59,635 bases of DNA, from the NCBI GenBank assembly GCA_964450355.1, contig CAYVDH010000002.1, forward strand, positions 1-59,635. Direction: 5' to 3'. The position numbers and the translations under genes are program-made. Of the stretch, positions 209-28,999 are shown one piece after another (position 1 is the first letter of the stretch; every line of letters begins with the position of its first letter). Source of the DNA: an uncultured Flavobacteriaceae bacterium. Its GTDB lineage: Bacteria; Bacteroidota; Bacteroidia; NS11-12g; UBA955. The notes under the pieces are model-generated. The model did not search any database and was not told where the DNA came from. It saw only the letters and a program-made list of their open reading frames with translations.

Positions 209-3200
209 ATGAAATGGAACTATAAAATTTTTAAAATTAGTCTGACAAGCTTGATGTTACTATTGCTTTGGAGATCCAATATTCAGGCTCAAAACTCCAG
301 CATAGTTATCAATTTAAATGTTATTCCTCCTTATTCACCCTACATTTCAGATTATGTCAACAATCAAAACAAAACCATCATCACTCTGATACCAACTGCT
401 GCGTCAAGAGTAACTCAATTAAATATTTACTTCAAAGCCACTTTAGAAGGCGATAATGGAGTGAGTATTAGTTCTAAAACAGGTTATAAACCGCCTACAG
501 CACTTACAATCAGCGCTTTATTTCCAACCACAATGAATGGAAAACAATTGGCAAATTATTTTAACACCAATAACATGATTTTTAAAGGGGTTACTCTTCA
601 ACAATTAGTGAATGGTGATGGGTTGCCAGAGGGTACTTACACCATTTGTTTACAAGCATTCGATTACGATACTGATTTGCCATTGTCTGGTATGCAGCCA
701 AATGGTTGTTCTGCACCTATTACAATTAAACATCCCGACCCTCCTTTACCAATGGTACCAAGTTGTGCAAGTGTTGTTACTCCCAAACCTATTCAAAACA
801 TCTTATTTAATTGGACATATAACCCTGGCTATACATCCTCATTGCAATATTTATTAAAAATAGTACCAGTACTTAAAACACAGAATCCAAATGATGCCAT
901 CAATACCATGGTAACACCTGCTTTTTTTGAAAAAATAATTAATTCAACTTCTTATTTGTATGGCCCTGCGGACCCTATATTAACTAAAGGGCAAAAATAT
1001 GCCTACAGAATTAAAGTGTATGATCCACAAGGTAAAATTTTATTTAAAAACAATGGCGAAAGCGAGGTCTGTACTTTTACGTATGGTGAAGAAGAAAAAG
1101 AACAACTCATAGTTAAACAAAACAATCAATTAATGAACATTGAAATCATTAATCCTGTATGTGGTAAATATCCCATTAAAGACAAGCAGATATATATTCA
1201 ATGGAAATCTATCCAATTCACAAAAAAGTCAAGCACTATTGACGAAAAAAAATTAATTGAAAAAACTGAAAAATATTTAATTGAAATAGCTGAAAAATCA
1301 ACGTATCTCAACGGTAAAATAAAACCATTTTCTGAATCAAAAATTGTATTTTCTAGCTATGAAACCAAAACCTTTTTTCAATCAAATGTTTCTTTATTAA
1401 AATTAGTAGATAAATCTTCCTATTATTTTAGAATCTCAAAATTTGAACAAAATAAAAAAATAGCTGTGAGTGAAATTTGTGAATTTAAATACCAATACGT
1501 AGCTTCTGAAAAGAAAAAAGCAAAAAACAACAGTTTAAAGATAAAAGGTCAAATTGTCTATACTGCATCAGGAAAAGAAGGCGAATTTGTATTAAATAAT
1601 ACATCCATTACTGCTGAAGAAGTTTATTATTTGGCAGATAAAAACAATGTAGATAAAGTAAAATATTATTTTTCTAATAATCCAATAACAAATAACCCAA
1701 TAAAAACTAAAAACTTTATCACAGATGACAATGGAAACATTAACACCAACATGAATGATGTAGTAGTTGGTATTGTCATTGAAAATTACAAAACTACAAA
1801 TCCTAAACTAGAGGGTATGTCGGGAGTGTTAATGAAAGGAATAAGATTAAAAATAAACAGCAATTATTATACACCCATTGATTTAATATTTACTGCAGCT
1901 AATAACAACATATTGGATATAGGTAAACAATATGTTAAAGTATATACTTTCAATGTTACATACACAGTGAAAAAAGGGTATAAAAACGCTGATAATATTG
2001 AAAGCATGTGTGAAGATTGTAATGTAAGTTTATATGAATTTGCAGATTTACCAGCTTATGTACCTAAATTTAAAAAAGAAAATAAAAAATTAGAAAAACC
2101 AATATTATTAAGTGGTTATAAATTCATTAATTCAGCAAAAACTATAGTAAATACATCCAATGTAGGAACCAAAACCACCATTGTTACATTTGAAAATCTT
2201 GTTTGTACTAACACAAGTGAGCATCACTATTTGACAACAATACAAAATCAAATTTTTGAAGATGGTGATAAAATGCAATATACTTCGTTTACAGATAATC
2301 CTAAAACAAATAAAAAAAGTCAAACCATTACTTTTATATCTAAAAAATTACCAACTTCAAAAGTAAAAGGACAAATATTTTACACTTACAAAGGCACCAA
2401 CACATCTCTTCCCTTAAATACAACGTTATTATTGAAAGTGTGTTATGTCATTGATAATGGAACTAAAAAGTTGGTAATGAACACCTATAATGTTGACAAA
2501 TCTGGTGGAACTCAATATCAAAATGAAGTCATAAATGATTTTAATAAAAAATATCCTGACAATGAAAAATCAATTGGGAGTACTAAAAGTAATGAAGCTG
2601 GCGAGTTTGAATTTAATGTAGAGAATGTAGAAGAATTTAATCAAGATTTAACAAATTACAATGTAAATACAGGAGGAGGAGAATTTAAAGCTACTTTTTC
2701 AGGAAAAGTATATAGGTGTTTGAGGGTTGTAGTTAATAATGGATATTATACCAATCCTGATAATGAAATTTTTATTGATCCACTTGGAACAGTGAATATA
2801 GGAAAAATTACTGCAACAGTAAAAGCCATGAAAGTAAAAGTGATATGCAAATCCATGAATTTGGCAGGACAAGCTGTTGTGTCTGGAAATGGTGTTCCTG
2901 GACTGGATGTAGGTATGCAAAGAAAAGGACCAATGCCTAATTATTACCCTAAAAATGAAGGCAACATTTCCAAAGAAAATAACATTCCATTAAATTTTAA
3001 GAAAGAAAATTTCATTAGCTATGGAGTTACAAATTCAGAGGGTATTGTTATTTTAAATGATGTTGTTATTAGTAAAGAGAAAAATTTTGAAAAATTATTT
3101 ATTAATGCTATGTCTCCAGATTTTAAAGGTGATTTTAATTACATTGGTTTTGGAAATATTGATATTGGCCCATGGGATTTAAAAAGTGGAGAATCAGGTA

Positions 3201-6200
3201 AAATAAATACTTATTACCAACCTGAAGCAATATATAACTCAGATTTTGCAACACCTACTTATATTCTCAACATTAGCATGATTCCAATTTCTCCTAAAAT
3301 AACTGGTAGAATATTGGATATATCAAAATCTAATACAGGTTTATCTGATGCTGTTGTGATATTAACAAAAAAAGAAAAAGGGTACTTTGGATCTTTAAGT
3401 AAATCTGAAATTGGGATTAAAACTGATCAAAATGGCTACTTTGAATTTAAAAATATCAAAGTGAAAAAAACAAACGATGGAACAGTCACTGGCCCTGAAC
3501 TAAGTATCAAAGTGTCGAAATCAGGGTACCATTACACTAAATTTATGGGGATGAATTTTGATTACAGCAATGAATTAGGCATTTTAAAAGAAGGCGAACA
3601 AAGGGTTTTACCTGAAATATATTTAACACCATCAGGCACTTTAAATGGTACAATAAAAGACGAAAAAGGAGTCCCAGTAGATTGTTATGTTGGTTTGATT
3701 GGAAATGACTTAAGTGAATCAAAATACCAATTTAAAAATGGAATTTTTAGTAGTAATTATGAAGTACTAACTCCTCCAGGCAAACAACTTAAACTTGTAG
3801 TATGGCCCAAAGATTTGAAATATTACATAGATACAATCGATTTACCTGAGATTAATTCTGGAAATAACGTGTTTGACATTACTGTTTACAAAAGACTTCA
3901 TCGTTTTAAATTTAAAATTTCAGAAGAAAAACAAGTGAAAAAAAATGGATTTTATGTAACAACTTACACATCTATACCGAATGCTAAAATACAAATAGAT
4001 GAACATGTTGTTTACACTGACCAAAATGGAGAAGCTAAACTTGAATTCGCAAATACTAGTACAAAAAATTTCACAGTTAAAGTAAGTGGACCTCAGGGGG
4101 AAAACTACATCGAAATTCAAAATAAAGTGACAAATTACGAATCAAAAAAATGGGCAAAATATTATCCATTTAATTTAAATAAAGGTATTGAAATCAATGG
4201 AAAGGTGACTTTAAAAGGAAAACCAATAAGTGGAGCAAACGTATGGGTGGACAGAGGTGCTGGAGTTAAACCGCTAGAAGTTAGTACAGATAATTTCGGA
4301 TTTTACAAATTGCAAGGAGTGAAATTAGGAACTAAAAATAAAGTTAAAGTATTTGCATCAGCCTTTCGTGATGATAAAATAATTATTGGAAATGAATCAG
4401 AAGTTGTGATTAATGATAAAATAATTCAACACGATATTCAATTACAAGAATTTTCTGACTATGACATTTCAGAATTTTATGGTTATAAATTAAATATTAC
4501 ATCCATAAAAATAAATTTAGATGGATCTGTAAATACTAAAGGATGGATTGATTTAAATAACTACAGCAACGATTTTAAACTTTCAGAAAATGGAAAAGTG
4601 ACCTTTAATAATCTTAAATTTAAAAAAGGAGTAAATAAGAATAAACGAGGAATGATTGAAGGAATCCCTTTAAGTGATGAATTAATCTTAGACAATATTG
4701 GTGTAAACATGAAGTATGGTAAACACATCAATGTATCCTTTTTTGAACCTCTGCTATTCAGTGGTAAAACCATGAGCATTAAAAAATTGAACAATGAAAA
4801 TGCTAGTATTTCAGGATATGCTTATATTGTCGATAATTCATTTGATTTTCCTGGAAGTTACTTAAGTTTTGGAAAATCACAATTTTATTTTGGTAATAAA
4901 GAAAAAACTGGCAATGATAAACCAATTGTTAGTTTGTTTAATTCTAACAATAATAAAATATTGTTTAAAAATCCATTTAATTTATGTGATATTTATGGCA
5001 ATGGATTAAAATATAAATTTTTACAATTTAATGCTGAATCTAACCCTGAAACTTCAACCATAAAACTGAACAAAGACAAAGAACCTATAATTTCATTGGA
5101 CACTAAAATCAGTGCTCATTTTGATAACATCACTCCTTCAGATTTATTAATAGATATTGGAATTTTTGAAATGAATCATGAAAAAATATTTCCTAATAAA
5201 GGAAAACAAAACATAAAATTCAATTTAGAACAATGGGTAGTAGAAGTAAAAAATTGGCAAATAACAAGCGATAAAGGTGGAATTACCTCTAATGAAGGTT
5301 TCATTACAGCGGGTGCTTTAAATGTACCTTTTAAAAATTTTCACATGCAAAATAATCTATTGGTATTTGATGATTTTGAATTAAATGAATTGAATTTAGG
5401 CAATGTGACCAAGTTAAATTTAAGTTCTGGCACCAAAACAATTTTTGGTTTTGATCAAGCCACTGGAAAAAATAAGGAGCCTCATTGGAAACTTTCACTG
5501 GTAGGTAAACCAAATAAACCTGCCGCTACTTTTGGAGATATTGATGGGCTTGAACAAGGGAAAAAAATCAATATAGAAGTTTTAACTTTACTAAGTAATG
5601 GTGAACAAATGTTAAGCTTTGGAGCATACAACGAACCATTATTACTTTATAATGTGATTAAGTTTACTCCAACAACCTTGAACAGTTACAGCGATTATTT
5701 TACATTAGGAGGAGTTATAGACTATAACATTCCTAGGATTAGTAAAGACATCTCTGGAATCATCAAAGTGGTAAAAAAGGGAAATGGAGCAAGTATTGAA
5801 ATCATGCCACAACAATTAGAATTTGAAGGAAAAGGATATGTTAAATTTTTAAGTTTAGGAACCAATGATCAAAAACAAAACATTTCTAAAGATAATTTGA
5901 CTATTTATGGTACAATTCAAGAACCAAATGAAACACCAAAATTTAATTGTAAAATAGAAAAATCCAGTTATGAATCCAACCCTAAACTTACATTGATACC
6001 TAATCAAGTTGTACCATTTGGTAGCAATAAACTTGCAAATGTAAATGGTAGCATGCTGGTAGTAAAATCCGATTGGGATTATTTAAAATTTGAAGGCGAT
6101 TTACAAGGATTTACTGGTGTTAATGACCAAGCAAAACATTTAAAATTTGTAGTATATGGTGATATAAAAGCTGAAGGTAGTAGCATCAAAATGGACAATA

Positions 6201-7006
6201 TAAATACACCTTTTGGCAACATGGAAATTACCTATGATTTTGCTAAAAGTAGGTTAATAGGTCACTTGGATGTTGATATGGATTTCAGTGAATCATTAAC
6301 AGTAAAAGGAGTTGCAAATTTATTGTTTGATAAAGATGGTTTCTTAATTAGTGTAGCAGCACAAGTTACAGCTCCTGTTGTCAATACATTTAATGCAGGA
6401 ATTTTATTGGGAACTTATAAAACCGTTCCTCAAAATTTCCTTTCAGATGTGGTAAAATATAATTACAATAAAAATATCCCTTGCCACATACAAAAATCGG
6501 GATTAAAAGGGTTTTTCATTACTGGAGCAAGGCAATTGCCTTTACAAGTACCTAACTTCAATGTGGATATTCCTCCAGGATTGGCTTTGGTTTCTTTGTA
6601 TGCTGGAGCTACTTCTGGAATAGAAGTGCAATTAGCTATGAACTTTAGTGGTGGATTAAAACTTGATGCTAATATTTTAGCGTATGCACATGTTTGGGCT
6701 GGTATTAATTCCATAACATGTACCGAAGCAGGTGTGGATATTACCGCGCAATTATTAATTGCAGGAACATACGATGCCGGTAATTTTAGCATAGATGGAT
6801 GTGGTAGCATTTTAATGGCTGTGAAAGGCTATCAAAAAGTGCCACTATTAGTTGGCTGTACAAGTCCCGAAATAAGTTTAGACACTCAATTAGGAGCTAA
6901 ATATTTAATCCATTTAGGAAGCGATGGATTTCATCAAGGTGTTGAGTTTTCAGTAGGAGCAAGTGCTAGTAATTGTACTGCTTTATTAGATTGTAGTAAA
7001 AAATGA
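209..7006 (+). CDS. Giant secreted/surface protein (2265 aa), paralog of 18022..24054. It has a conserved N-terminal ~270-aa module and carboxypeptidase-regulatory-like beta-sandwich repeats, and no T9SS C-terminal domain
   Basis: Single 6.8-kb ORF. The signal peptide is MKWNYKIFKISLTSLMLLLLWRSNIQAQ. The N-terminal module aligns by eye with the 2010-aa paralog (PPYSPYISDY / APYSLKLTDYY; LPEGTYTICLQAFDYDT / LPEGLYYFCFSVYDANT; LFNWT / VFNWS; LYGPADPILTKGQKYAYRIKV / IYGPAQPQLIKGKRYAWRVQV). CarboxypepD_reg-like segments are present (ITGRILD...KTDQNGYFEF; INGKVTLKGKPISGANVWV...STDNFGFYKL). The C-terminus (..NCTALLDCSKK) lacks a YPNP-type sorting domain. Confidence 0.8.
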   Translation: MKWNYKIFKISLTSLMLLLLWRSNIQAQNSSIVINLNVIPPYSPYISDYVNNQNKTIITLIPTAASRVTQLNIYFKATLEGDNGVSISSKTGYKPPTALTISALFPTTMNGKQLANYFNTNNMIFKGVTLQQLVNGDGLPEGTYTICLQAFDYDTDLPLSGMQPNGCSAPITIKHPDPPLPMVPSCASVVTPKPIQNILFNWTYNPGYTSSLQYLLKIVPVLKTQNPNDAINTMVTPAFFEKIINSTSYLYGPADPILTKGQKYAYRIKVYDPQGKILFKNNGESEVCTFTYGEEEKEQLIVKQNNQLMNIEIINPVCGKYPIKDKQIYIQWKSIQFTKKSSTIDEKKLIEKTEKYLIEIAEKSTYLNGKIKPFSESKIVFSSYETKTFFQSNVSLLKLVDKSSYYFRISKFEQNKKIAVSEICEFKYQYVASEKKKAKNNSLKIKGQIVYTASGKEGEFVLNNTSITAEEVYYLADKNNVDKVKYYFSNNPITNNPIKTKNFITDDNGNINTNMNDVVVGIVIENYKTTNPKLEGMSGVLMKGIRLKINSNYYTPIDLIFTAANNNILDIGKQYVKVYTFNVTYTVKKGYKNADNIESMCEDCNVSLYEFADLPAYVPKFKKENKKLEKPILLSGYKFINSAKTIVNTSNVGTKTTIVTFENLVCTNTSEHHYLTTIQNQIFEDGDKMQYTSFTDNPKTNKKSQTITFISKKLPTSKVKGQIFYTYKGTNTSLPLNTTLLLKVCYVIDNGTKKLVMNTYNVDKSGGTQYQNEVINDFNKKYPDNEKSIGSTKSNEAGEFEFNVENVEEFNQDLTNYNVNTGGGEFKATFSGKVYRCLRVVVNNGYYTNPDNEIFIDPLGTVNIGKITATVKAMKVKVICKSMNLAGQAVVSGNGVPGLDVGMQRKGPMPNYYPKNEGNISKENNIPLNFKKENFISYGVTNSEGIVILNDVVISKEKNFEKLFINAMSPDFKGDFNYIGFGNIDIGPWDLKSGESGKINTYYQPEAIYNSDFATPTYILNISMIPISPKITGRILDISKSNTGLSDAVVILTKKEKGYFGSLSKSEIGIKTDQNGYFEFKNIKVKKTNDGTVTGPELSIKVSKSGYHYTKFMGMNFDYSNELGILKEGEQRVLPEIYLTPSGTLNGTIKDEKGVPVDCYVGLIGNDLSESKYQFKNGIFSSNYEVLTPPGKQLKLVVWPKDLKYYIDTIDLPEINSGNNVFDITVYKRLHRFKFKISEEKQVKKNGFYVTTYTSIPNAKIQIDEHVVYTDQNGEAKLEFANTSTKNFTVKVSGPQGENYIEIQNKVTNYESKKWAKYYPFNLNKGIEINGKVTLKGKPISGANVWVDRGAGVKPLEVSTDNFGFYKLQGVKLGTKNKVKVFASAFRDDKIIIGNESEVVINDKIIQHDIQLQEFSDYDISEFYGYKLNITSIKINLDGSVNTKGWIDLNNYSNDFKLSENGKVTFNNLKFKKGVNKNKRGMIEGIPLSDELILDNIGVNMKYGKHINVSFFEPLLFSGKTMSIKKLNNENASISGYAYIVDNSFDFPGSYLSFGKSQFYFGNKEKTGNDKPIVSLFNSNNNKILFKNPFNLCDIYGNGLKYKFLQFNAESNPETSTIKLNKDKEPIISLDTKISAHFDNITPSDLLIDIGIFEMNHEKIFPNKGKQNIKFNLEQWVVEVKNWQITSDKGGITSNEGFITAGALNVPFKNFHMQNNLLVFDDFELNELNLGNVTKLNLSSGTKTIFGFDQATGKNKEPHWKLSLVGKPNKPAATFGDIDGLEQGKKINIEVLTLLSNGEQMLSFGAYNEPLLLYNVIKFTPTTLNSYSDYFTLGGVIDYNIPRISKDISGIIKVVKKGNGASIEIMPQQLEFEGKGYVKFLSLGTNDQKQNISKDNLTIYGTIQEPNETPKFNCKIEKSSYESNPKLTLIPNQVVPFGSNKLANVNGSMLVVKSDWDYLKFEGDLQGFTGVNDQAKHLKFVVYGDIKAEGSSIKMDNINTPFGNMEITYDFAKSRLIGHLDVDMDFSESLTVKGVANLLFDKDGFLISVAAQVTAPVVNTFNAGILLGTYKTVPQNFLSDVVKYNYNKNIPCHIQKSGLKGFFITGARQLPLQVPNFNVDIPPGLALVSLYAGATSGIEVQLAMNFSGGLKLDANILAYAHVWAGINSITCTEAGVDITAQLLIAGTYDAGNFSIDGCGSILMAVKGYQKVPLLVGCTSPEISLDTQLGAKYLIHLGSDGFHQGVEFSVGASASNCTALLDCSKK

Positions 7007-8934
7007 AACTAAAAAAATACAGTATATTATTAATTCTATTGAGTTTACTAAAAACAGTAAATTCCCAAAATCCCTACATCACCAAAGGGGTAAATGGTTA
7101 TTTTATTTTCGTAGATAGAATGATTCCAAAAAATGAAAATGGTGCTCAAATTTTTAGAGACAATTTAAACACCATACAATTAAATTATCCTGAAACTGAA
7201 GAAGAATTCATTTCTAAAGTTCATCAATTTTATGCAGATAATCCATATTATTCAATACAAAGTGATAGTGTATTGAGAAATTATTGGCAATGGAGCACTG
7301 GTTTTACATTTATTGACAGCCTTCCATTGGCAGCTAAAATGCCTGATGTTTTAATTGGATTAGGAGTTATGCATTTCGAAAAATTCAATGAAGAGAATAA
7401 AAATTCATCATTTGAAGTCGCTTATAATGGAACAAAAACTCCATTAAAATTAAATCAATATAGAACAGAAAATAAAATTAAATACCTAAATCATCAGTTA
7501 GATGAAAATTATATACAAATTCATTGGATATTAAAATCTGAAGAAAACATCATGAAAACCAAAGTATATAAACAATACATTGGTCAACAAGAAACTATGA
7601 ATGAAGTCAATATTAAACCTTATTTATTTAGAGTTAAAGACAGTGTTTTAATCAAATTAATGGATACCAATGCCTACCCAGGTTTAAAATATAAATATTA
7701 CATTAAAACAATAGATTATCTTGGTTTTGAAAACAAATCAGCAGATTCTGTAGAAATACTAAATATACCCCGCAATACTTTGCCTGTCATCATGAATGCT
7801 AAATCAATAAGTGATGATGTTAACAAAGCCATTGTATTAAAATGGAAATTACAACATCATTTTGCTGTTCAAACAATTGATATTTATAGAAGCCCTAATT
7901 TTGATTCAGGTTTTGTTTACATTACTACAGTAAATAATAAAGATACAAGTTACATTGATTATTCAGTTCAAGCTGCAGTTGGTTATTGGTATAAATTTGT
8001 TATCAATGGCGTATTTGAAAGAGGAATTAATACCACTAAAATTGGGGGCATTTTAAAAATTGATGCCGAACCTCCAACATTAAAAGGAGTTACCTGTGTT
8101 TCTTCTGATAAGGGAATCATAGTAAGATGGATTCCTAACAGCAACAATGTAAGAGGTTATTACTTATATAGAGCAAATGGATACAAAGGCGAAATGCAAA
8201 TGATAAGTCCATTAATCAAACATGAATCTGATAAATCCTATTATGAATACATTGATAGTTCATTGGTGGTGAGAAATGGTAACATATACAGTTATGCAAT
8301 AAAAGTATACAGCAATGGATATGTTTTTAGTGAATTCAGTGATACTTCATCAAGCTACATTGCAGCGAATGAAAATATGTATGCATTAAGCCGAATAAAC
8401 ACCATTATCAATGATGATCAAATTCTTTTACAATGGGATAACATTAATATGGAAAATGGGAAATGTTTAGGCTATCGATTGTATAGAACAGATAGCAATA
8501 AAACTTGGCAATTGTTAAATCAAGAACTATTAAATAAAAATCAATTCAATGATACATCAGTAAAATTCAATACCAAATACAGCTATAAATTGTGTTTAGT
8601 GAATTACAATGATCAAGAAAGCAATTGTTTAACCACTGATGTTCTTATCAATTCGCCAAGTGTATTTCCTCCTGAAATAATGAGTATAAGTTACTCCAAT
8701 AACAGTGTAGAAATAGAATGGGAGAACAACAATCAAATGGGTGTGGATGCCATAGAATTATATAGAATGGAAGAAAATAACAGCCCAATAAAGGTGGCTT
8801 CTCTTGCACCGAATCAGAACAGTTACACAGATAAAACCATAGAAAAAAACAAAAGCTATTTTTATTACATAGTACTAAAAGCTTATGGAAGCAAAAGCAA
8901 TAACAGTACACCTACCAAAATCATAACAGAATGA
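7003..8934 (+). CDS. Secreted fibronectin-type-III-like repeat protein (643 aa), paralog of 24070..26178
   Basis: ATGA overlap with the upstream giant gene. Signal peptide MKLKKYSILLILLSLLKTVNSQ. Repeated FN3-like units have the pattern Y(R/L)YR....Y.D......Y.Y.(I/V) (IDIYRSPNFDSGF..YIDYS..GYWYKFVI; YYLYRANG..YEYIDSS..IYSYAIKV; YRLYRTD..FNDTS..YSYKLCLV; ELYRMEE..YTDKT..YFYYIVLK). Confidence 0.75.
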   Translation: MKLKKYSILLILLSLLKTVNSQNPYITKGVNGYFIFVDRMIPKNENGAQIFRDNLNTIQLNYPETEEEFISKVHQFYADNPYYSIQSDSVLRNYWQWSTGFTFIDSLPLAAKMPDVLIGLGVMHFEKFNEENKNSSFEVAYNGTKTPLKLNQYRTENKIKYLNHQLDENYIQIHWILKSEENIMKTKVYKQYIGQQETMNEVNIKPYLFRVKDSVLIKLMDTNAYPGLKYKYYIKTIDYLGFENKSADSVEILNIPRNTLPVIMNAKSISDDVNKAIVLKWKLQHHFAVQTIDIYRSPNFDSGFVYITTVNNKDTSYIDYSVQAAVGYWYKFVINGVFERGINTTKIGGILKIDAEPPTLKGVTCVSSDKGIIVRWIPNSNNVRGYYLYRANGYKGEMQMISPLIKHESDKSYYEYIDSSLVVRNGNIYSYAIKVYSNGYVFSEFSDTSSSYIAANENMYALSRINTIINDDQILLQWDNINMENGKCLGYRLYRTDSNKTWQLLNQELLNKNQFNDTSVKFNTKYSYKLCLVNYNDQESNCLTTDVLINSPSVFPPEIMSISYSNNSVEIEWENNNQMGVDAIELYRMEENNSPIKVASLAPNQNSYTDKTIEKNKSYFYYIVLKAYGSKSNNSTPTKIITE

Positions 8935-9905
8935 AAACATTAACCTATTTTATTTACATCTCGGCACTAATTCTATTTTCTTGCGCTAAAGACAATGGAA
9001 TAATTGCTACAGTAAGTGTTGATTTTATTATAAAAAACAACAATGCAAATGCCCCTGCTTTGGTTGAATTTGAAAACAAATCAAAATTTGCAAATGGATT
9101 TGTTTGGTATTTTGGAGATGGAGATTCGGCAACTACAGTTCATGCAACGCATACTTACACTCTTGGAGGCATTTATCATGTAACCCTTAAGGCATTTACA
9201 GATAAGGACATTATCACTGTTTCAAAAACTGTAAATGTCACCAATGCAAATCCTGTTGCTGATTTTAATTTTAACATGCCAAAACCCTTTGTAAATGCTG
9301 CTAATTGTCAATTTTCAAACACATCGCAAAATGCAACATCTTATTATTGGCAATTTGGCGATGGAAATGGAAGCAACTCAAATTCTCCAGTTCATGAATA
9401 CAAATCAAGTGGCATTTTTACTGTTAGATTGGCAGCTTATTCAGGTAATGGTGATAGCAGCGTAACGACCAAACAAATTAAAGTAAAATCGAAAGCAGAC
9501 AGTGTGTTGATACACCAAGTGAGAATAATTACTACGGCCACATTAATGTTTCAAATGTATCCATTAGATGGTTCTGATGATCCTGATTATTTGGTAGCAT
9601 TTGGCAACTGGATAGATACAAGTAAAAAAAGAACATACACCATTTGGAACAGCAAATCCTTTCCATTAGATTACAATTTACAAAGCAATCCTATTTATTT
9701 ACCTGTTGCAATTGGTTCAGCTTCACCACTGATTAATAAAGTGTTTATATTAGATAATGATGGTACTTATGAACAAAATGTCGATGATTTAGATTTAATT
9801 TTAGCAGATTACACTAAAGTTTCTAATCCATACCCAGATGAAATTGATTTAACTGGTAGCACTTTAGGTGAAACTACTTTAAAGTTGTTTGTTACTTGGA
9901 AGTAA
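8931..9905 (+). CDS. PKD-domain lipoprotein (324 aa)
   Basis: ATGA overlap with the upstream gene. Lipoprotein-type signal MKTLTYFIYISALILFSC. Two PKD signatures (WYFGDGDSATTVHATHTYTLGGIYHVTLKA; WQFGDGNGSNSNSPVHEYKSSGIFTVRLAA). Confidence 0.8.
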   Translation: MKTLTYFIYISALILFSCAKDNGIIATVSVDFIIKNNNANAPALVEFENKSKFANGFVWYFGDGDSATTVHATHTYTLGGIYHVTLKAFTDKDIITVSKTVNVTNANPVADFNFNMPKPFVNAANCQFSNTSQNATSYYWQFGDGNGSNSNSPVHEYKSSGIFTVRLAAYSGNGDSSVTTKQIKVKSKADSVLIHQVRIITTATLMFQMYPLDGSDDPDYLVAFGNWIDTSKKRTYTIWNSKSFPLDYNLQSNPIYLPVAIGSASPLINKVFILDNDGTYEQNVDDLDLILADYTKVSNPYPDEIDLTGSTLGETTLKLFVTWK

Positions 9906-13255: not shown

Positions 13256-13343
13256 ATTGGCAAATTTCAGTTATTTTTATCCTCATTGAAATACCCATTT
13301 ATGGTGATTGTTTCTATTTTTAGATGGCTTTATTTTTGAAGAC

Positions 13344-14846: not shown

Positions 14847-14866
14847 AGGAAGTTTTTATCCTTTTT
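14845..14866 (+). terminator. Weak candidate intrinsic terminator after the C1 peptidase gene
   Basis: aaagga / tccttt 6-bp stem with an 8-nt loop. It overlaps the TAA stop and is followed by a T-rich tract (ttctaatttttt). Confidence 0.3.
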
Positions 14867-14883
14867 CTAATTTTTTATTACAT

Positions 14884-15717: not shown

Positions 15718-15783
15718 GTTTGAATAGGCTTATTGATAAATTTTGTTGTACCATAACAAAATAAGGCTTATTCAAACTTTTTT
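15718..15783 (+). terminator. Long imperfect hairpin + T-run; likely intrinsic terminator of the LuxR-family gene
   Basis: gtttgaata (15718-15726) pairs with tattcaaac (15769-15777). There are further inner pairs (ttatt/aataa, ttttgtt/aacaaaa). tttttt follows immediately. Confidence 0.5.
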
Positions 15784-15915
15784 GTAAAAAGTTTGGGGTA
15801 GTTTTAAATTGATATAAATAAGTATTTGCACATGTCCAAAATAAAATTACATTTGTACAGTTTTCATGAATTAAATATCAATGTTATATTAAATTCATTT
15901 AAATTTTGTATCACT

Positions 15916-18003: not shown

Positions 18004-18021
18004 CTATCAATCATTAACTGC

Positions 18022-21000: not shown

Positions 21001-24000
21001 GCTATAGTTCAAAACATTAAAATTATCAGTTCAAAATCTAATTTAGTCATTCCAGGATGCAGTGTGGTATTAGAAGGCAATAATCAAACATTGCAATCGG
21101 ATAATAATGGAAATGTTCAACTTATTATTGGAGAAAACGAAATGTTTTCTATTTCTTTTTCAAAACAGTTCTACAAAGAAAAAATAATAAAAGGTAAAGG
21201 AAGTGATTTGATAGATTACAGTCAGATATTGATAGACACTCTGAATGTAAATTTTGAATACTTATCAGGTTTTCCTATTCAGGTTTCGCAGTATGTTGAT
21301 TTAGGAAACGGGCAATTTAATATCAGTGGTAAACTAAGAATCACTCCAAATAAATTAGTGAATGTGGATACGGCTGAAGGAAACTTGCTATTTAAAGATG
21401 TAGTGGTAAAAAAGGGCGGTGGTAAAAATAATTATTTTCCTATTTCTGATGTTGTTTTTGAAAATGGGGTTTTAAAAGCTGATTTATTCAATTACATACC
21501 CATTGAAATTAATAATCCAAAACTTACTAAAGCAATTAATTCCAATGATTACAGCAAAGCGGAGATTGGTGCAGAAAAAATTAACGCACGTATTGATTTA
21601 TTAGATTTTGAAAATAAATCACTCAGTTTAGGAACCTCCTCTTTTATTGATCTGGTAGGTGCAAATACTCCAAACGAATTCAAACAAATGTTTGCAGCAC
21701 CTAATCAGAATGTGGATGAAATCAGCAATAATAATGAGTATGCACTTAGCAATATAACCGGAAACTTCAACAACAAAGACCTTTTCCCCAATTACAATTC
21801 AGACAAAGATTTGCTGAAATTTAATGTGAATGGTAAAAATTCTATTATCAACAAAAATGAAATTGCTTTCTCAGGAAATTTGGATTTTGATAATACCTTG
21901 ACTAAAAATGGAGATAACAACAATCAATTTCCAGTTAAAAAGTTAGCCATAAAAAGAGATCTAAGCACCCTTACTTTAGCATTTGATGTGAGCAATGACA
22001 AACCATATTATGCAGGTATTGACAAACTACAAACCAAAATTACTTCAGTTAACTATAACGGTTTTGGAACAAACAATGGTCAATTAAATGTGGGCGGTGA
22101 GATTTGGTTTTGGAAAAAAGAAAAATCATCGCTCAATACCTTGGGTGTTGTTAAAATGAATGGTTTTAAAGTGATTCCATCTAACAGTGAAATTCATTTT
22201 AGTGGAAAATTGGAATTAGCCACGGGCTTGCCTGTTCAACAATTAAATTTCAAACCAACCGTTGGCAATGTAGATTTTGCATACTACCCTAATATTTTAT
22301 CATATGAAATTGCCACATCAGGTACTTTAGATTTTAATTTACATAGTAAGGAAACCTCGGTGATTGATCATTTTTTTCCTTTGGAAATAGAAGCATTCAA
22401 ACTGAAAACAAGTGATTTTACATTTTTCCTAAAAGCGAATGCTGAAGCTGGTATAGAGGTAGGTCCGGTAGCTATTGGATTAAATACTTTTATTCTAAAC
22501 ATAGGCTCTTCTGCTACCCTTTCATCAACCGATGAAATGTTGGACGATATTTCTGGCAACTACAATGTGCCCAAAATGAGTGATGGTGTGCCCTTAGAAA
22601 ATGACAAAGTAAATTGGATAGTTGGTATTGGCGGAAGTGTGGAAACAAGTATTAAAGAATTGACTTGTGGTGGAGGTGGAACGGTATTATTTGGCATGGA
22701 AAACAATCAATTCAAATGGATGGTAAAGGAAATTCAATTTAAATTGGAAAAGGGCGATATGTATGCCTTTGATGTGGCCGCAAAATTTAGCAATAACGAT
22801 ACACGCAATGGGTTTGAAGCATCTGGTACCGGTACTTTTTTGAAGAACACTGTATCGCTTGGTTTTAAGTACTACAAATACAGCAATAAAAACATAGAAT
22901 GTGGTGCTACTATAGGCTATGAACCTAAGAAACCCTTTGTTACAGGGCCAGTAGAATGGTTTAGAGTAGGTGGAGGTTTTGATTATAATCAAAACAACAA
23001 TTCACTGGCTTTTTGGATAAATGGTCAAGCTAGTGTGGTAGGAATGCCCAGAGAAATCATGTATGTAGATGCAGAAAAATTGGGTATTCTATTTCAAACA
23101 AAAGATTGCGGTGCAGTTCCTGTTATTGAGGGGAATGCAAAATTATATTTAACCGAAACTCAAGCTGGAGAAGTAAATAGTAAAATTGATTTTTGTAAAA
23201 ACTTCTTTTTACTGAGTGGGAACGTTGCTCTGCCCAATAAAATTCCAGGCATTAAAATTGACCCACAACAATTTGTCATTTATGGACAACACTCTCCGGG
23301 CGGTGTCACTGAAGGAAGCATGTTTGCAGCCTACACCACCAAATCAAAAAATAGTTTTGCCAAAGGCAATGCCGTATTTGCTTTGGGCTATCAGTTTTGT
23401 ATAGACAATCCAAATGTGCCTCAGGAAATTCTAACTTTTTGGGATGCGATTGACGACCGAGCAAAGCAATTTAAAAATGTAAAAAACAATCATAATTCAC
23501 AAGGAATTAATGTAGGTAACATAACTCAAGCAATGAAAGCAAAACCCAATTATTTCAGTGCTTTTTATGTGGGTACCAAACTCACCATTCCCAATAATGG
23601 TGGTTCTTACAACCTCAAAGTAAGTGATTGGGATGCAATGACCATTGATTACAATATGTATTTTGACGGATTCACATTTTTCACTTTTAGGTTTGATGAA
23701 TTGTATGCTAGAGGCTATGGAAATTATTATTTCAATCCTGTATTTGATATTGACATAGCCAGTTCACTCAAGTTCAAAGCAGATATTCAACTCAATACTA
23801 CTTTAGATGTAAAATTGAATGGCAATGATTGGTATATGGATGGAAAAGGTGATGGTAAAATTGAAATTACTACAGGTGGCAATTTAAAAAAATGCAACAG
23901 TGCTAGTATCAAAATGAAATGTGTAGCAAAAGTATTTAAACAATGCATTATAAAAGTACCAACTGGATTGAAGTTAAAAATTTGTGCTGACTTAAATCTC

Positions 24001-24054
24001 GACTTTAAGCTACAAGATGGTAAAGCCCCTAAGTTTAACATTCATTGGAATTAA
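18022..24054 (+). CDS. Giant secreted/surface protein (2010 aa), paralog of 209..7006; no T9SS C-terminal domain
   Basis: Signal peptide ..LTYGLNAKAQ. The N-terminal module is homologous to that of the 2265-aa protein (motifs listed there). CarboxypepD_reg-like segments (FKGKITFKNKPVSQAVVSLL..SNNDGEFTINIP; ITPIANALVALSNSNITTKTSQYGYFVISS). The C-terminus ..KAPKFNIHWN has no YPNP-type domain. Confidence 0.8.
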   Translation: MKNRLKNRLLVLVVLTYGLNAKAQFPVQVMTQLVAPYSLKLTDYYLSSTPKLYVTLTNRDFTNPNLSVKLNLKIVGNNVEIKSNPNAVYTPIELIAGVPQRMYSVDISQYFDLNNLLFSGLTKEQYLTTGKLPEGLYYFCFSVYDANTNELLSAPEQCAVAWISLGDPPILNLPQNNSEVSAREPTNIVFNWSPRHLNSPNAASNTEYEFQLVELLDNYVDPNAGFQSSKILYSTTTRYTNLIYGPAQPQLIKGKRYAWRVQVKPISKAQEFDEYRNNGFSDVYSFTYTEYCQPILRLQANVSDQEVSFSWAPIQNVSSYFLHYQLSDSHEDSLNISNQTSASLTKLVANGKYVYWLTYTCSSGVLIQSGKQKFTVPSTFKVNGEKPSNLCQQNKKNLTGNVFVSYYNNGLEINSSNQSILVNSYSEYKKEAFNYNENVNTKLPFEGAEVNLFHLKNGVEKLIEKVSTDINGKFSMNVQLETCDLANYYFKINDLSGMVNETQISLDSTKLIGQTIYTEAILFLKSFEIKPTIFSPYSSSTEKTYLEVWLSKLDWDKMYMPLAKVLQVNDATKMRYNNNEYVLIDVIKNGGTYKKLLQNLNNSNGYLFKTVIKDIGENTEVIEPIKDYTYISKCFKTQLYQTFKGKITFKNKPVSQAVVSLLIENPNDFYNKNVAQNETTILSNNNGFKTINYFSNNDGEFTINIPRLLENAVVKIKVEYFQANPDSYIQEVRTSKSLVYTTDIDLKIKYYSYIGFVGKNVGNEITPIANALVALSNSNITTKTSQYGYFVISSTQKLNGSLTISNDGFENQTINVSSLQVVPINYNNNLSIEQDWADAISKLPIIINFTNQNPTLKNNSELFGKTTGILANTYNYEVNVISQQIDAIVNVNPITLTPNKNSKVPVEFSVKYKNNLIALPISLQEINSNSNNPTTQIYTEDGKHNTIYLAANTNYNLSIRSFSNYIFKPINSNFKTVQLGNNLVQKIEIVLEPAIVQNIKIISSKSNLVIPGCSVVLEGNNQTLQSDNNGNVQLIIGENEMFSISFSKQFYKEKIIKGKGSDLIDYSQILIDTLNVNFEYLSGFPIQVSQYVDLGNGQFNISGKLRITPNKLVNVDTAEGNLLFKDVVVKKGGGKNNYFPISDVVFENGVLKADLFNYIPIEINNPKLTKAINSNDYSKAEIGAEKINARIDLLDFENKSLSLGTSSFIDLVGANTPNEFKQMFAAPNQNVDEISNNNEYALSNITGNFNNKDLFPNYNSDKDLLKFNVNGKNSIINKNEIAFSGNLDFDNTLTKNGDNNNQFPVKKLAIKRDLSTLTLAFDVSNDKPYYAGIDKLQTKITSVNYNGFGTNNGQLNVGGEIWFWKKEKSSLNTLGVVKMNGFKVIPSNSEIHFSGKLELATGLPVQQLNFKPTVGNVDFAYYPNILSYEIATSGTLDFNLHSKETSVIDHFFPLEIEAFKLKTSDFTFFLKANAEAGIEVGPVAIGLNTFILNIGSSATLSSTDEMLDDISGNYNVPKMSDGVPLENDKVNWIVGIGGSVETSIKELTCGGGGTVLFGMENNQFKWMVKEIQFKLEKGDMYAFDVAAKFSNNDTRNGFEASGTGTFLKNTVSLGFKYYKYSNKNIECGATIGYEPKKPFVTGPVEWFRVGGGFDYNQNNNSLAFWINGQASVVGMPREIMYVDAEKLGILFQTKDCGAVPVIEGNAKLYLTETQAGEVNSKIDFCKNFFLLSGNVALPNKIPGIKIDPQQFVIYGQHSPGGVTEGSMFAAYTTKSKNSFAKGNAVFALGYQFCIDNPNVPQEILTFWDAIDDRAKQFKNVKNNHNSQGINVGNITQAMKAKPNYFSAFYVGTKLTIPNNGGSYNLKVSDWDAMTIDYNMYFDGFTFFTFRFDELYARGYGNYYFNPVFDIDIASSLKFKADIQLNTTLDVKLNGNDWYMDGKGDGKIEITTGGNLKKCNSASIKMKCVAKVFKQCIIKVPTGLKLKICADLNLDFKLQDGKAPKFNIHWN

Positions 24055-24069
24055 AATGAGGAGAAAATA

Positions 24070-26178
24070 ATGAAGAGAAAAACCATAATATTAATCATAT
24101 ACTGCTTAGCACTTGATGTATATGCTCAAAAAGGTGCAAAAGAAAGTGATAAAATTCTTTATCAATCTTCACCTAAAGGCATTTATTTGCATGTAATCCC
24201 TCAAGCCATGTACAGTTCTGATGATTCTATGAGGTTGAAGAACTTAGATTATTTTATTATTTATCGCTCTGAAATACTTTCTGAAAACAATAAAAATACT
24301 GAAAATCAGCAAATCGGATTGTTAAAAAAAGTTGGCACTTACAATGAAATTGCAGAGATTTTTGGTAATGAAAAATTGCAGCGTATCAAAAGGGTTTTGA
24401 ATTTAAACGATGCTAATAGTGTCGTTCAATATTTTAAAAACAAAAAAAATCCGGAACAATACCCTCTCATTTATCAATTGATTGAAACTAAAATAGTAGC
24501 TGGAGATGTGTATTGGGATAAAACAGCCAAACCTGAAACAAAATATAAGTATTTGGTAATTGCTGTGTTAAAGAATGGGGAGCAAAAAGATTGGGGAAAT
24601 GTGATTACACAAAACAATTCGAAGGATTTATCCATCAATTATTTCAAACCTGTATTTAATAAAAGAGAAGTTTATGATAGTGCCATAGTTTTGAATTGGG
24701 TTTTGGTGGTTGACCGTGTAAAAGAGGGCGATAGAACGGTGTTGTATGACGAAACAAATGGATACAATCCAATGTGGAATGACAATGTGAATTTGTATGC
24801 CACAGTTTATAATTTTAGCAATGGAAAATACCACGAACTAAAAAGAATAGCTGCCAATTGGAATGAAGAATTAGACACAGCCATTTTTTCAGTTTCAATT
24901 CCTGCAGCATCATATCAGGCATACAATAATTTTATACAGTTGGAAGACAATGTTTACAATAGAGGTAATAATAGTGATACCGTAGAATCCTTTTGTGTAA
25001 ACGATGACAATCTTCCAATAATAAAAGAAATTTTTATAACAGACACGGTAGATGCTGTTAAAATTGCTTGGCATTCACAAAGTAAATTGCCCTTCATCAA
25101 AGCAGTACAAATCATTCGCGAATTTAGCAAGGATTCTATTGCAATGAAGGATACGCTACCATTGATAAACGTTTACGATTCTGTGTATTACGATTATCAT
25201 ATTTTGCCTGGAATTAAGTATTTGTATTTCGCTAAGTTCATTTATCATCCTAGTATAGATGCCAAACAAAGCATCCCAGCACAAGGTGTTGGTTCTTATA
25301 TCAAGTTCAGCAAACCAAATATTCCAACTATGCTTACAGCAAGAGATGAAAAGGGAAATAACAGATTAAATTGGGATTATGTAACTCAAAAAAGTTTCTA
25401 CGCCTACTATGTATATCGTGGTACAAATCCCGATAAAGTGAAATTAATTAGTCCTGCTATTTTTGAAAAAACATATTTAGATACTTCCATTTCATTAAGC
25501 CCAAGACTTACTTATTATTACAAAGTAGTAGCTGAAAATTTAAGAAACGACACCAGTTTATATTCTGATTTTGCTTCCATTACTCCTAATAGAAAAGTTG
25601 CCTTTGCAACTGCTTCAGTATATGATTTTTATTATGAAAATAACCAGTTGCACATCACTTGGACAGATGTACGAAATACAGACAATTTTGTAAAATCATA
25701 TCAATTGTACCGCAGGTATTTAGGAGAAGAAAAATATCTCCTCTTAACACCAGAACCGTTATCGGTAGCTGCTTTTACCGATAAAAACATCAAACCCAAT
25801 GAGCGTATTTATTACAAGGCAGTATCTGTTTCCCACCAAGGCGACACCATTCATTCTCCTATTATTGGCGAGTTCTTTTTACCTAAATCTAAAGTAGATG
25901 TGGTTAGTGATTTTTCTTTAAAAAATGTAGCTGATGGCATCCTGATTTCGTTGCCCAAAGTAAATTACAGCAATCGAAAAGCATATATTATTTACCGAAG
26001 AAAAGCAACAGAAGATACTTTTGAAAAAGTGGGTATATTGGACAATTGCAATTTTGAATTAGTAGATACCAATGTGCAACCCAACACCAATTATGTTTAT
26101 GCCATTGCTATAGTAGATAGAGATGGAAAAGAAGGGTCAATAAGTGTAAGTAAGTCTATTAAAAAAACAAAATCATGA
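24070..26178 (+). CDS. Secreted FN3-like repeat protein (702 aa), paralog of 7003..8934
   Basis: Starts 15 bp after the giant gene, with an AGGAG-like sequence upstream. Signal peptide MKRKTIILIIYCLALDVYAQ. FN3-like units (YVYRGTNPDK..YLDTS..YYYKVVAEN; YQLYRRYLGE..FTDKN..IYYKAVSVS; IIYRRKATED..LVDTN..YVYAIAIVD). Confidence 0.75.
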   Translation: MKRKTIILIIYCLALDVYAQKGAKESDKILYQSSPKGIYLHVIPQAMYSSDDSMRLKNLDYFIIYRSEILSENNKNTENQQIGLLKKVGTYNEIAEIFGNEKLQRIKRVLNLNDANSVVQYFKNKKNPEQYPLIYQLIETKIVAGDVYWDKTAKPETKYKYLVIAVLKNGEQKDWGNVITQNNSKDLSINYFKPVFNKREVYDSAIVLNWVLVVDRVKEGDRTVLYDETNGYNPMWNDNVNLYATVYNFSNGKYHELKRIAANWNEELDTAIFSVSIPAASYQAYNNFIQLEDNVYNRGNNSDTVESFCVNDDNLPIIKEIFITDTVDAVKIAWHSQSKLPFIKAVQIIREFSKDSIAMKDTLPLINVYDSVYYDYHILPGIKYLYFAKFIYHPSIDAKQSIPAQGVGSYIKFSKPNIPTMLTARDEKGNNRLNWDYVTQKSFYAYYVYRGTNPDKVKLISPAIFEKTYLDTSISLSPRLTYYYKVVAENLRNDTSLYSDFASITPNRKVAFATASVYDFYYENNQLHITWTDVRNTDNFVKSYQLYRRYLGEEKYLLLTPEPLSVAAFTDKNIKPNERIYYKAVSVSHQGDTIHSPIIGEFFLPKSKVDVVSDFSLKNVADGILISLPKVNYSNRKAYIIYRRKATEDTFEKVGILDNCNFELVDTNVQPNTNYVYAIAIVDRDGKEGSISVSKSIKKTKS

Positions 26179-27908
26179 TGACGAAACTTCTTTCAAAATG
26201 TAAACTACTAATTTTTCCCTTCTTTTTGTTTTGTGCAAAAAGCGCTACTAGTCAAGAAATAAATTTGGAGCATGTAAAAGAAAATATCAAACAAGCCAAA
26301 CTTTTAACTACATCGGGAGGAATCAATTTCAACACCTTCAGTTATAATGGTTCTAATTTGGCTAATAGAAATCCTTTTACCTGGCAATTGATAGGCAATG
26401 TCAATTTCAGGGTAGCTAACCTTATTGACTTACCTGTAACCTTTAATTTTACTAATCTTTCTCATCAATATAAACTTCCCATTTCGCCTTCTCGTATTGG
26501 CATTCATCCTACTTACAAAGGTTTCAAAGCACATTTGGGTGATGTGAATATGGTGTTTAGCCCTTATACTTTAAATGCGCATCAGTTTACTGGAGCTGGA
26601 TTTGATTATCAACCCCTGAAATCAAAATTTAACTTTAGCTTGATGACAGGGCGCATGCAAAAAGCAGTAAACTACGAATATGGAAATCAAAATATTGTTC
26701 CAGCATACCAGAGATTTGGTTATGGATTTAGAGTTGGATTTAATGATAAACTTGCCTCAGTTCATTTGAACTTCTTTAGTGCAAAAGATAAAATCAATTC
26801 AGTTAGTACACCTTTGGATTCTATAGGTATAAAACCATTGCAGAACGCAGTGGGTAGTATTAGTGCTGCTTTCAGGCCAGCAAAATTCGTGGAATTGAGT
26901 ATTGAGTCTGCTGTAAGTGCTATGACAGAAGATTTGAGAAATTCAGAAGATAAAATAAATAGAAGTCTATACTTGGTGGGTAATTTAATTCACTCAAACA
27001 ATACAACAACCATTCATAATGCCACCAATGCCAAATTGAAATTCAACATTAAGAATGCTGTTTTAGGGATAGGTTACGAAAAAATTGATCCTGGTTTCAG
27101 AACTCTTGGTGCTTATTTCTTTGCTAATGATTTAACCAATTACACCTTGCTATTTGCCAAACCACTTTTTAAAAACAAACTTAGCATCAATACCAATTTC
27201 GGTTTACAATACGACAATTTAGATAATAACAAAGCTAACACAAACTCACGTTTTGTGGGTTTGTTTAATATCAATTTTTCTCCAAATGAAAAATTTATTT
27301 TAAGTGCTAACTATTCCAATTTCAGAACTTATATGCGTATCAAGTCACAGTTTTTATTCATCAATCAAATCAATCAGTTGCAGACTTTAGACACTTTTAA
27401 TTTTACTCAAATCACTGACAATGTCAATGTTTTTGTTATGCAGCAAGTACATAAAAATGCAAAAAACGCACAATATATAAATGCCAATTTTAGTTTTCAA
27501 AATGCTCAAGTAATTCAAAAAACAAATGAGAGTGGCAGCAACAAATCTATATTTTATAATTTCAACTGTGCTTACACCTACAACTATTTACCTTCAAATT
27601 ATACTGTTACAACCTCCTATAATTTATCACTCAATGATTTGAACGACCAGTCAATTATTACTCAAGGTCCAATATTGAGTTTGGATAAAAAATCAAAGAA
27701 TAAAAATTTAGGTTTTGGTACATCTATTTCATATAACAAAAGCACATCTAGTAACGGAATTATAGCAGCAACCGACATTTACAACTTCCGATTTTACTTC
27801 AATTATTTACTCTTGAAAAAACACAATTTTAGACTGAGTACAGGTTATCAAAATTTCAATCATCAAAGTAATTGGTTGATAAATGCGGGATATGGATTAA
27901 GATTTTAA
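26175..27908 (+). CDS. Predicted outer-membrane beta-barrel protein (577 aa)
   Basis: ATGA overlap with the upstream FN3 gene. Signal peptide ..CAKSATSQ. The sequence is Asn/Tyr/Phe/Gly-rich with an alternating pattern throughout. It ends in ..NAGYGLRF (a terminal aromatic beta-signal-like residue). Confidence 0.55.
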   Translation: MMTKLLSKCKLLIFPFFLFCAKSATSQEINLEHVKENIKQAKLLTTSGGINFNTFSYNGSNLANRNPFTWQLIGNVNFRVANLIDLPVTFNFTNLSHQYKLPISPSRIGIHPTYKGFKAHLGDVNMVFSPYTLNAHQFTGAGFDYQPLKSKFNFSLMTGRMQKAVNYEYGNQNIVPAYQRFGYGFRVGFNDKLASVHLNFFSAKDKINSVSTPLDSIGIKPLQNAVGSISAAFRPAKFVELSIESAVSAMTEDLRNSEDKINRSLYLVGNLIHSNNTTTIHNATNAKLKFNIKNAVLGIGYEKIDPGFRTLGAYFFANDLTNYTLLFAKPLFKNKLSINTNFGLQYDNLDNNKANTNSRFVGLFNINFSPNEKFILSANYSNFRTYMRIKSQFLFINQINQLQTLDTFNFTQITDNVNVFVMQQVHKNAKNAQYINANFSFQNAQVIQKTNESGSNKSIFYNFNCAYTYNYLPSNYTVTTSYNLSLNDLNDQSIITQGPILSLDKKSKNKNLGFGTSISYNKSTSSNGIIAATDIYNFRFYFNYLLLKKHNFRLSTGYQNFNHQSNWLINAGYGLRF

Positions 27909-28990: not shown

Positions 28991-28999
28991 TGGAAATGC

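Follow-up and report, generated by a model that had tools for sequence, protein, structure and literature searches.

Two giant TANFOR-module proteins with Fn3-like partners and a candidate outer-membrane barrel system in a Bacteroidota contig

We analysed a 59,635-nucleotide (nt) stretch of DNA (the window), one entire contig (CAYVDH010000002.1) from an uncultured Flavobacteriaceae bacterium, which contains two gene cassettes that each encode a giant exoprotein (G1 or G2) followed by a smaller partner (P1 or P2). A preliminary description of this DNA had recorded six open reading frames (ORFs) in the two cassettes, and the coordinates and lengths that it gave are all correct. We abbreviate the remaining two of the six as L (8931..9905) and B (26175..27908). 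The cassettes and the features adjoining them are as follows.

209..7006, + strand: giant G1, 2265 amino acids (aa), with a Sec signal peptide, an N-terminal module (N-module), a beta-sandwich array and an all-beta C-terminal region
4559..7003, + strand: C-terminal region of G1 (residues 1451-2265), an all-beta meander in an AlphaFold2 (AF2) model
7003..8934, + strand: partner P1, 643 aa, with a signal peptide and at least 4 tandem Fn3-like repeats
8931..9905, + strand: PKD lipoprotein L, 324 aa (Pfam PKD_4), the third gene of cassette 1 in the preliminary description
14884..15657, + strand: PAS-LuxR/GerE regulator (Pfam), upstream of cassette 2
15826..18003, + strand: FG-GAP protein (FG-GAP_2) with a type IX secretion system (T9SS) sorting domain (Por_Secre_tail) at its C-terminus
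18022..24054, + strand: giant G2, 2010 aa, with a signal peptide, TANFOR, Fn3 and CarboxypepD_reg domains and a C-terminal module
24070..26178, + strand: partner P2, 702 aa, with a signal peptide and Fn3-like repeats
26175..27908, + strand: predicted outer-membrane barrel B, 577 aa (AF2 model, synteny), the third gene of cassette 2 in the preliminary description
28174..28198, + strand: terminator-like hairpin and T-run after the barrel gene (1 site found, 0.2 expected)

The N-terminal similarity between the giants that had been noted by eye is supported by BLASTP (27% identity over 331 aa, E 2e-27), which detects nothing significant past the first ~330 residues. In both giants the N-module starts at ~residue 30, about 10 residues past the predicted signal cleavage site; in G1 it spans residues ~29-295 and consists of a TANFOR domain (35-173) and an Fn3-like half. 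Within the shared module, the sequence of residues ~180-295 follows an Fn3-like pattern and, in G2, gives a weak match to Pur_ac_phosph_N; G2 carries an additional fn3 match at residues 297-358. The TANFOR assignment, offered tentatively at first, is borne out by the NCBIfam model TIGR02542 (145 positions; curated NCBI cut-off 67 bits), which matches G1 at residues 35-173 (E 2.4e-11, 43.8 bits, model positions 7-144) and G2 at residues 28-154 (E 2.8e-8, 33.8 bits, model positions 5-136). Several homologues are also named "TANFOR domain-containing protein" by their sources (E 1e-50 to 1e-117, e.g. P0034, P0055, P0079, P0256 and P0262). CarboxypepD_reg-like sandwiches, likewise proposed for both giants, are placed by Pfam at residues 1329-1388 of G1 and 766-816 of G2.

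Both giants belong to subfamilies that are conserved from end to end. We identified 188 homologues of G1, about 1900-2600 aa in length and many of them full-length, with subfamily members of 2100-2600 aa extending down to 24-30% identity across 98-99% of the length. Members of the G2 subfamily (P0242-P0253) are 2000-2180 aa long and share 25-31% identity over ~100% coverage. Profile-profile comparison of the two subfamilies (hhalign) gave a single collinear, full-length alignment (E 7e-68). When the N-module was removed, the middles still aligned (G1 ~698-1450 with G2 ~365-1108, probability 99.2%, E 9e-20), as did the last ~240 residues (G1 ~1999-2237 with G2 ~1712-1992, probability 92%, E 7e-7), while the profiles detected no relation between G1 and G2 in the stretch separating these two modules. 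The "long divergent C-terminal region" of the preliminary description thus holds for this intervening stretch, and not for the alignable middles and C-termini. Since the middle and C-terminal regions align at the profile level, the giants are true but old paralogues along most of their length.

The C-terminal module common to G1 and G2 lies at nt ~6203-6919 in G1. The AF2 model of G1 residues 1451-2265 is confident and entirely beta (mean predicted local distance difference test score, pLDDT, 85.5; predicted template modelling score, pTM, 0.46) and ends in five to six Gly/Ala/Ser-rich strands of 18-22 residues, with conserved cysteines. Foldseek matches of this model in the PDB and BFVD (LptD, ApoB100, ushers, phage fibres) reached template modelling (TM) scores of only ~0.1 and were dismissed as generic long-beta-sheet noise. 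The last 815 or 860 residues of the giants have no Pfam match at E<=1, and searches of PDB sequences with both giants, the G1-family profile and the barrel profile returned nothing at E<=1.

TANFOR proteins, taken in the preliminary description for a barely characterised group, were described in 2020 as polymorphic toxins, with a Sec signal, variable C-terminal nuclease, deaminase or ADP-ribosyltransferase (ART) domains and immunity genes downstream (Jana, Salomon & Bosis 2020, PMC7073777). The same study reported that Fn3, PKD, SprB and Por_Secre_tail domains are enriched near TANFOR genes and that T9SS is present in >95% of TANFOR genomes, speculated that TANFOR proteins are exported by T9SS, and mentioned no barrel or lipoprotein family with TANFOR genes (PMC7073777). 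Its neighbourhood analysis was domain-based and the barrel family has no model, so that the barrel would not have been visible to it.

G1 and G2 resemble the TANFOR toxins in that the TANFOR domain is N-terminal, directly after the Sec signal peptide; the cassettes resemble the toxin loci in their Fn3, PKD and T9SS-substrate neighbours, and both are restricted to Bacteroidota. The N-module of G2 is 40-48% identical to that of toxin-tipped proteins (PF14424, PF14412, PF14436, PF01129, PF15652 and similar), and the tips found on proteins with a G2-like N-module include deaminase, AHH, EndoU, ART and SHH domains. Unlike in the toxins, the ~2000-aa body is here conserved within each subfamily and an Fn3-repeat partner is encoded next. 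We found no recognisable or variable C-terminal toxin domain on G1 or G2 (Pfam, E<=1), their C-termini being kept in homologues, and no downstream immunity gene, the next genes being the conserved 643-aa and 702-aa partners. The lack of a toxin domain and of an immunity gene, together with end-to-end conservation in each subfamily, points to G1 and G2 as a distinct non-toxin, structural or adhesive class of TANFOR proteins. Whereas the TANFOR domain and its toxin class are already known, the non-toxin giant subfamilies and the Fn3 partner, barrel and PKD lipoprotein families are new with respect to the literature searched, Pfam and NCBIfam; in that literature no paper connects TANFOR proteins with either a barrel or a two-partner-like route.

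P1 and P2 share 21% identity over ~410 aa (BLASTP, E 1e-8) and fall into one BLAST cluster with partners from 28 loci. An xYR...YxYxV motif recurs in them with a period of ~95-105 aa, at residues 292, 386, 491 and 584 of P1 and 62, 446, 544 and 639 of P2. Their best Pfam scores (P1, fn3_2, E 0.027; P2, Pur_ac_phosph_N, E 0.05) lie below the fn3 gathering threshold, and the proposed FN3-like character of the repeats therefore rests on the motif pattern and on homologues, two of which (in loci L001 and L087) have Pfam fn3 matches. The adjacency of giant and partner extends to other genomes: a partner lies directly 3' of 13 of 55 complete TANFOR genes, directly downstream in essentially all close relatives of the cassette 1 locus (L001-L018), and in the position of P2 in L086 (704 aa) and L097 (721 aa). 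Partners follow either full giants of the G1 and G2 subfamilies or body proteins of ~1450-1800 aa. The sole surveyed locus with partner-like genes directly after a shorter TANFOR gene is L029, where the intervening 600-aa gene is itself partner-like.

B has a signal peptide, a closed antiparallel barrel and a C-terminal aromatic residue (it ends in ...GYGLRF), as do outer-membrane beta-barrels. Its AF2 model, built from 47 homologues (pLDDT 79.5), has 26 strand elements and no plug. Only ~17 mature residues precede strand 1, and there is no POTRA or other periplasmic domain. We found no sequence relative of B in Pfam, NCBIfam or the PDB; the lack of a Pfam or NCBIfam match and the ~26-strand model both set B apart from an Omp85-type 16-strand barrel with POTRA domains, and B is unrelated to Omp85. 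Foldseek returned 248 PDB barrel matches at E<=1e-3, the best being MtrB (TMq 0.49), followed by pilus ushers and TonB-dependent receptors; these are generic large-barrel matches only. An exhaustive profile search for B yielded 2,725 cluster representatives, mostly of 555-600 aa, with a second size class of ~810 aa that has a C-terminal extension.

L has a lipobox (...LFSC) and two PKD domains (Pfam PKD_4, E 1e-21), and it matches the hidden Markov model of a ~449-aa PKD-lipoprotein family (E 3e-67). In 29 of 97 loci a member of this family is encoded directly 5' of the barrel, and over 36 L-B pairs from the two surveys described below the spacing from L to B has a median of -1 nt. Orthologues of L lie 3' of the partner in L004 and L005, the closest relatives of G1. 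Two metagenomic loci (L095 and L094) contain tandem modules of a short TANFOR gene (~760 aa), genes of 964 and 164 aa, a PKD lipoprotein (449 aa) and a barrel (581 aa), and whole-system duplications thus occur in tandem.

The two third genes, presented as paralogous members of the cassettes, have no mutual similarity (best E 0.42); the duplicated unit is giant plus partner only, and L and B are not paralogous members of a common cassette plan. G1 and G2 fall into different subfamilies, each with full-length relatives and with genes in a conserved order of its own, which is barrel-giant-partner(-PKD lipoprotein) in the G1 type and T9SS protein-giant-partner-barrel in the G2 type. The proposed ancient duplication, maintained as a functional unit, is thus retained for giant and partner, as a duplication or an independent acquisition, and not for the third genes. 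The ATGA overlaps said to recur in both cassettes are present at the G1/P1, P1/L and P2/B junctions, and a 15-nt spacer separates G2 from P2.

Cassette 2 is larger than first described. In L086 (E 7e-51) and L097 (E 2e-25), homologues of the FG-GAP gene at 15826..18003, which stops 18 nt ahead of G2, are found directly 5' of G2-type giants, and we therefore place the start of the cassette at 15826. The product of the FG-GAP gene matches Pfam FG-GAP_2 and NCBIfam Por_Secre_tail (E 4e-4), and its C-terminal ~200 aa match T9SS SprB-repeat proteins adjoining other TANFOR genes. The hairpin at 28174..28198 is likely the end of the cassette 2 transcript. Directly 5' of the barrel-giant pair lie GerE response regulators in L002 and, in L005, an unannotated pair of genes that match these in size (1035 and 210 aa); regulation of cassette 2 by the gene at 14884..15657 is possible, although the association is weak.

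Only 208 nt (1..208) separate G1 from the contig end, which truncates cassette 1, and they hold no coding sequence. Three independent assemblies (L083, L084 and L085) stop at distances of 208-270 nt 5' of G1, and this suggests that a repeated element lies there. We found no second barrel gene across the window; following the precedent of G1 relatives (order B-G-P-L in L005), cassette 1 probably has its own barrel gene beyond the break. Cassette 1 would then read (B, presumably past the contig end)-G1-P1-L, and cassette 2 reads T9SS-tailed FG-GAP protein-G2-P2-B. In L004, an uncultured Chitinophaga metagenome-assembled genome (MAG), a G1-type giant is apparently split (354 and 2009 aa) and two opposite-strand ORFs, possibly an insertion, separate the barrel from the giant; if so, L004 would set a precedent for the junction of barrel and giant being disrupted.

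We investigated the gene order of related loci in two surveys. Survey 1 covered 80 genomic loci drawn from the giant alignment, 71 of them with enough upstream sequence; the genome scan used a set of closer sequences, as an alignment of 17 diverse giants had proved too divergent. Survey 2 covered 80 metagenomic loci drawn from the barrel alignment, with 68 barrels scored. In survey 1, 37 of the 71 loci have a barrel gene immediately 5' of the TANFOR gene, and 48 have one within 10 kb. Conversely, a TANFOR gene lies directly downstream of the barrel in 30 of the 68 of survey 2, and anywhere in the locus in 37; the remainder mostly have the barrel followed by a ~1450-1800-aa protein with no Pfam domain and a partner homologue. 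The median B-to-G gap is 18 nt (77 pairs). The closest relatives of G1 (L001-L018) have the order B-G-P, and L005, with B-G-P-L, is the closest that was fully sampled. In the G2-type clusters L086 and L097 the order G-P-B is retained, as in cassette 2. A barrel also precedes a toxin-type TANFOR protein, ending in an AHH nuclease, in L051. More distant loci have T9SS FG-GAP proteins whose C-terminal domain (CTD) is of type B, SprB-repeat T9SS proteins and PorP/SprF-OmpA barrels directly 5' of B. Such ordered sets recur in Chitinophagales, Cytophagales, Flavobacteriales, Bacteroidales and Ignavibacteria-type MAGs.

These surveys dispose of the idea that generic surface proteins have clustered by chance. 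It could appeal to the low pairwise identity, and beta-sandwich repeats are common in Bacteroidota; the sets are nevertheless recurrent, tightly spaced and ordered across orders, and translational coupling is present, leaving this explanation next to no probability. We are highly confident that the loci are conserved multi-gene TANFOR envelope systems and not chance neighbours, assembled from as many as four recurrent components (L, B, G and P).

The ~1450-1800-aa body family (L043, L070, L074, L087, L131, L148, L159 and L167) is often encoded directly after the barrel. A partner homologue comes next in most of the loci (all but L092, L096 and L156), and the family may be among the core components of the system. 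We detected no TANFOR module in the body protein (hhalign probability 39%, mostly signal peptide) and on this ground rejected the idea that it hides one; its homology to the C-terminal module of the giants is not established (hhalign probability 47% at best).

Taken together, the homology and domain make-up of the giants and partners, the synteny that links L, B, G and P, the fold of the barrel and the absence of T9SS signals and toxin domains lead us to propose a two-partner-like system for export or anchoring that employs an unrelated barrel, to which we give a probability of roughly 45%. Under this proposal G and P would cross the inner membrane via Sec, and B would serve as a dedicated outer-membrane conduit and/or anchor for the N-module (TANFOR) of G. 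L, on the model of LptE, would perhaps gate or complete B as its plug or cofactor. G would expose its beta-sandwich stalk and its all-beta C-terminal region on the cell surface, together with P. More tentatively still, B, with or without L, could be the outer-membrane part of an unrecognised Bacteroidota export or surface-display route for TANFOR-module proteins and their Fn3 partners, and with it a counterpart of two-partner secretion (TPS) and contact-dependent inhibition (CDI) and the missing secretion route of the TANFOR toxins.

The proposed system can be compared with several known ones. As in TPS and CDI (TpsB-TpsA; CdiB-CdiA-CdiI), a barrel is encoded immediately 5' of a giant exoprotein that depends on Sec, the mature N-terminus carries a conserved module of ~250-300 aa, and the family includes members with swappable C-terminal toxins followed by immunity genes. 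In contrast to TpsB, an Omp85 barrel of 16 strands, B has ~26 and lacks POTRA domains; residues 1-340 of either giant have no Pfam match to the TPS (haemagglutination activity) domain at E<=1; and the cassettes have an extra PKD lipoprotein and Fn3 partner, with the barrel gene last in the G2 type. LptD-LptE and MtrB-MtrA are 26-strand barrels enclosing a protein. B is similar to these in predicted strand number, and a lipoprotein gene adjoins the barrel gene in the L-B pairs; it differs in having no sequence relation to them, a TM score of only 0.49, no LptD-type periplasmic jellyroll and unrelated cargo. MtrB, LptD and the ushers represent a size class of barrels that house or pass proteins, and B, as modelled, would belong to the same class. 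SprB-SprF, a T9SS type-B-CTD protein with its PorP/SprF anchor, likewise combines a giant surface protein with a dedicated barrel, and such pairs adjoin TANFOR loci, but B is far larger and has no PorP_SprF match, and the giants have no CTD.

Should the barrel turn out to be the translocon, it would represent a new route of secretion across the outer membrane, in a phylum that matters for the microbiomes of soil, water and gut. TANFOR proteins carry no T9SS signal, and the barrel is a candidate for their secretion or anchoring machinery. To our knowledge, they are the only described polymorphic-toxin class specific to Bacteroidota. The non-toxin TANFOR giants may be adhesins or the scaffold of the system. 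In the window and ~160 related loci, TANFOR genes travel with barrel, PKD lipoprotein and Fn3-repeat families that deserve curated models.

Several points weigh against this proposal. The localisation of the proteins, the contact between B and G and the direction of export are all inferred. In survey 1, 23 of the 71 TANFOR genes have no barrel within 10 kb, and about half have none directly upstream. Conversely, in at least 7 loci the barrel is followed by a ~1450-1800-aa body protein and P instead of a TANFOR gene, and as this protein has no TANFOR module, the barrel appears tied to the system and not strictly to the TANFOR domain. The PDB matches of B are generic (TM <= 0.49), and both giants score below the TIGR02542 cut-off, although their matches are significant and near full-length. 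Finally, T9SS substrates and PorP/SprF-OmpA genes are persistent neighbours, which keeps a role for T9SS in play.

The last point is the basis of an alternative in which T9SS exports the giants, with B only a surface anchor like PorP/SprF, or with the giants docking on the T9SS-secreted FG-GAP protein. A conserved T9SS-tailed FG-GAP gene opens the G2-type clusters, its C-terminus matches SprB-repeat proteins beside other TANFOR genes, and type-B-CTD FG-GAP and PorP/SprF-OmpA genes stand directly 5' of the barrel in several loci. Two more T9SS substrates are encoded between the cassettes, in keeping with the published enrichment of SprB and Por_Secre_tail domains and the prevalence of T9SS in TANFOR genomes (PMC7073777). 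However, searches for the T9SS sorting domains (type A, TIGR04183/PF18962; type B, TIGR04131/PF13585) found none on G1, G2, P1, P2, L or B at E<=0.01, whereas identical searches were positive on five other genes of the window, including 9906..13255, 15826..18003 and 44801..56977. We know of no T9SS cargo that does not use a C-terminal signal, and the conserved module here is N-terminal; moreover, a dedicated large barrel is left unexplained if SprA performs the export. We regard this alternative as doubtful, though worth serious attention.

A different division of labour is conceivable, in which an apparatus, a surface fibre or delivery scaffold, is built from the giant (or the ~1500-aa body protein) together with the Fn3 partner and the barrel, and smaller toxin-tipped TANFOR proteins dock on it as cargo via the N-module; G1 and G2 would then be scaffold and not cargo. 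Many loci, among them L043, L070, L074 and L087, have this composition, with one barrel, one pair of body protein and P, and a separate toxin-type TANFOR gene. P follows giants or the body protein, and a shorter toxin-type gene only in L029; the barrel, too, can precede the body protein instead of a TANFOR gene. The window itself has neither a toxin-type TANFOR gene nor an immunity gene, and homology between giant and body protein is not established by the profile comparisons given above. We hold this arrangement to be unlikely. Less probable again is that G1 and G2 are themselves polymorphic toxins with an unrecognised C-terminal toxin, whose amphipathic beta-hairpins could form a pore. They do share their N-module with toxin-tipped proteins, closely so for G2, and in the model the last ~120 residues form very long, alternating beta-hairpins rich in Gly, Ala and Ser. 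Against this, the C-termini are conserved within each subfamily and not swapped (99-100% coverage, 25-30% identity), toxin families in Pfam give no match even at E<=1, and the gene that follows is a conserved partner in place of a small immunity-like gene.

We additionally identified the following genes in the rest of the window, which has no tRNA or Rfam family. Between the cassettes (9906..13255, - strand; 13308..15657, + strand) are genes for two T9SS-tailed proteins, one with an InlB B-repeat and one with a beta-propeller repeat, for a papain-family C1 peptidase fused to a LamG domain, and for the PAS-LuxR regulator; the genes between the cassettes have no homologues in the other TANFOR loci surveyed. 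Three tandem AIM24-family paralogues (28343..32175, - strand; 219-229 aa, each E ~1e-60) are flanked by an M48 peptidase gene on their upstream side and a small alpha/beta-hydrolase-like gene on their downstream side. A 1304-aa coiled-coil protein is encoded at 32386..36300 (+ strand) in a stretch with a strong AT skew of 0.35 (A over T), and a 300-aa ORF lies inside it on the opposite strand. The leucyl-tRNA synthetase (39211..42513, + strand; 1100 aa) contains, inserted in frame at residues 478-581 just past the editing domain, a DUF559 (Vsr-like endonuclease) domain (E 5e-29), which is unusual for a housekeeping synthetase. At 44801..56977 (+ strand) is a 4058-aa T9SS substrate with GEVED, CARDB, multiple PKD, Ig_7 and Por_Secre_tail domains, unrelated to the TANFOR giants. 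Finally, the overlapping genes at 57371..59420 (+ strand), for a DUF4062 protein (196 aa) and a Schlafen AlbA_2/HATPase_c_4 protein (489 aa), look like a defence-type module.

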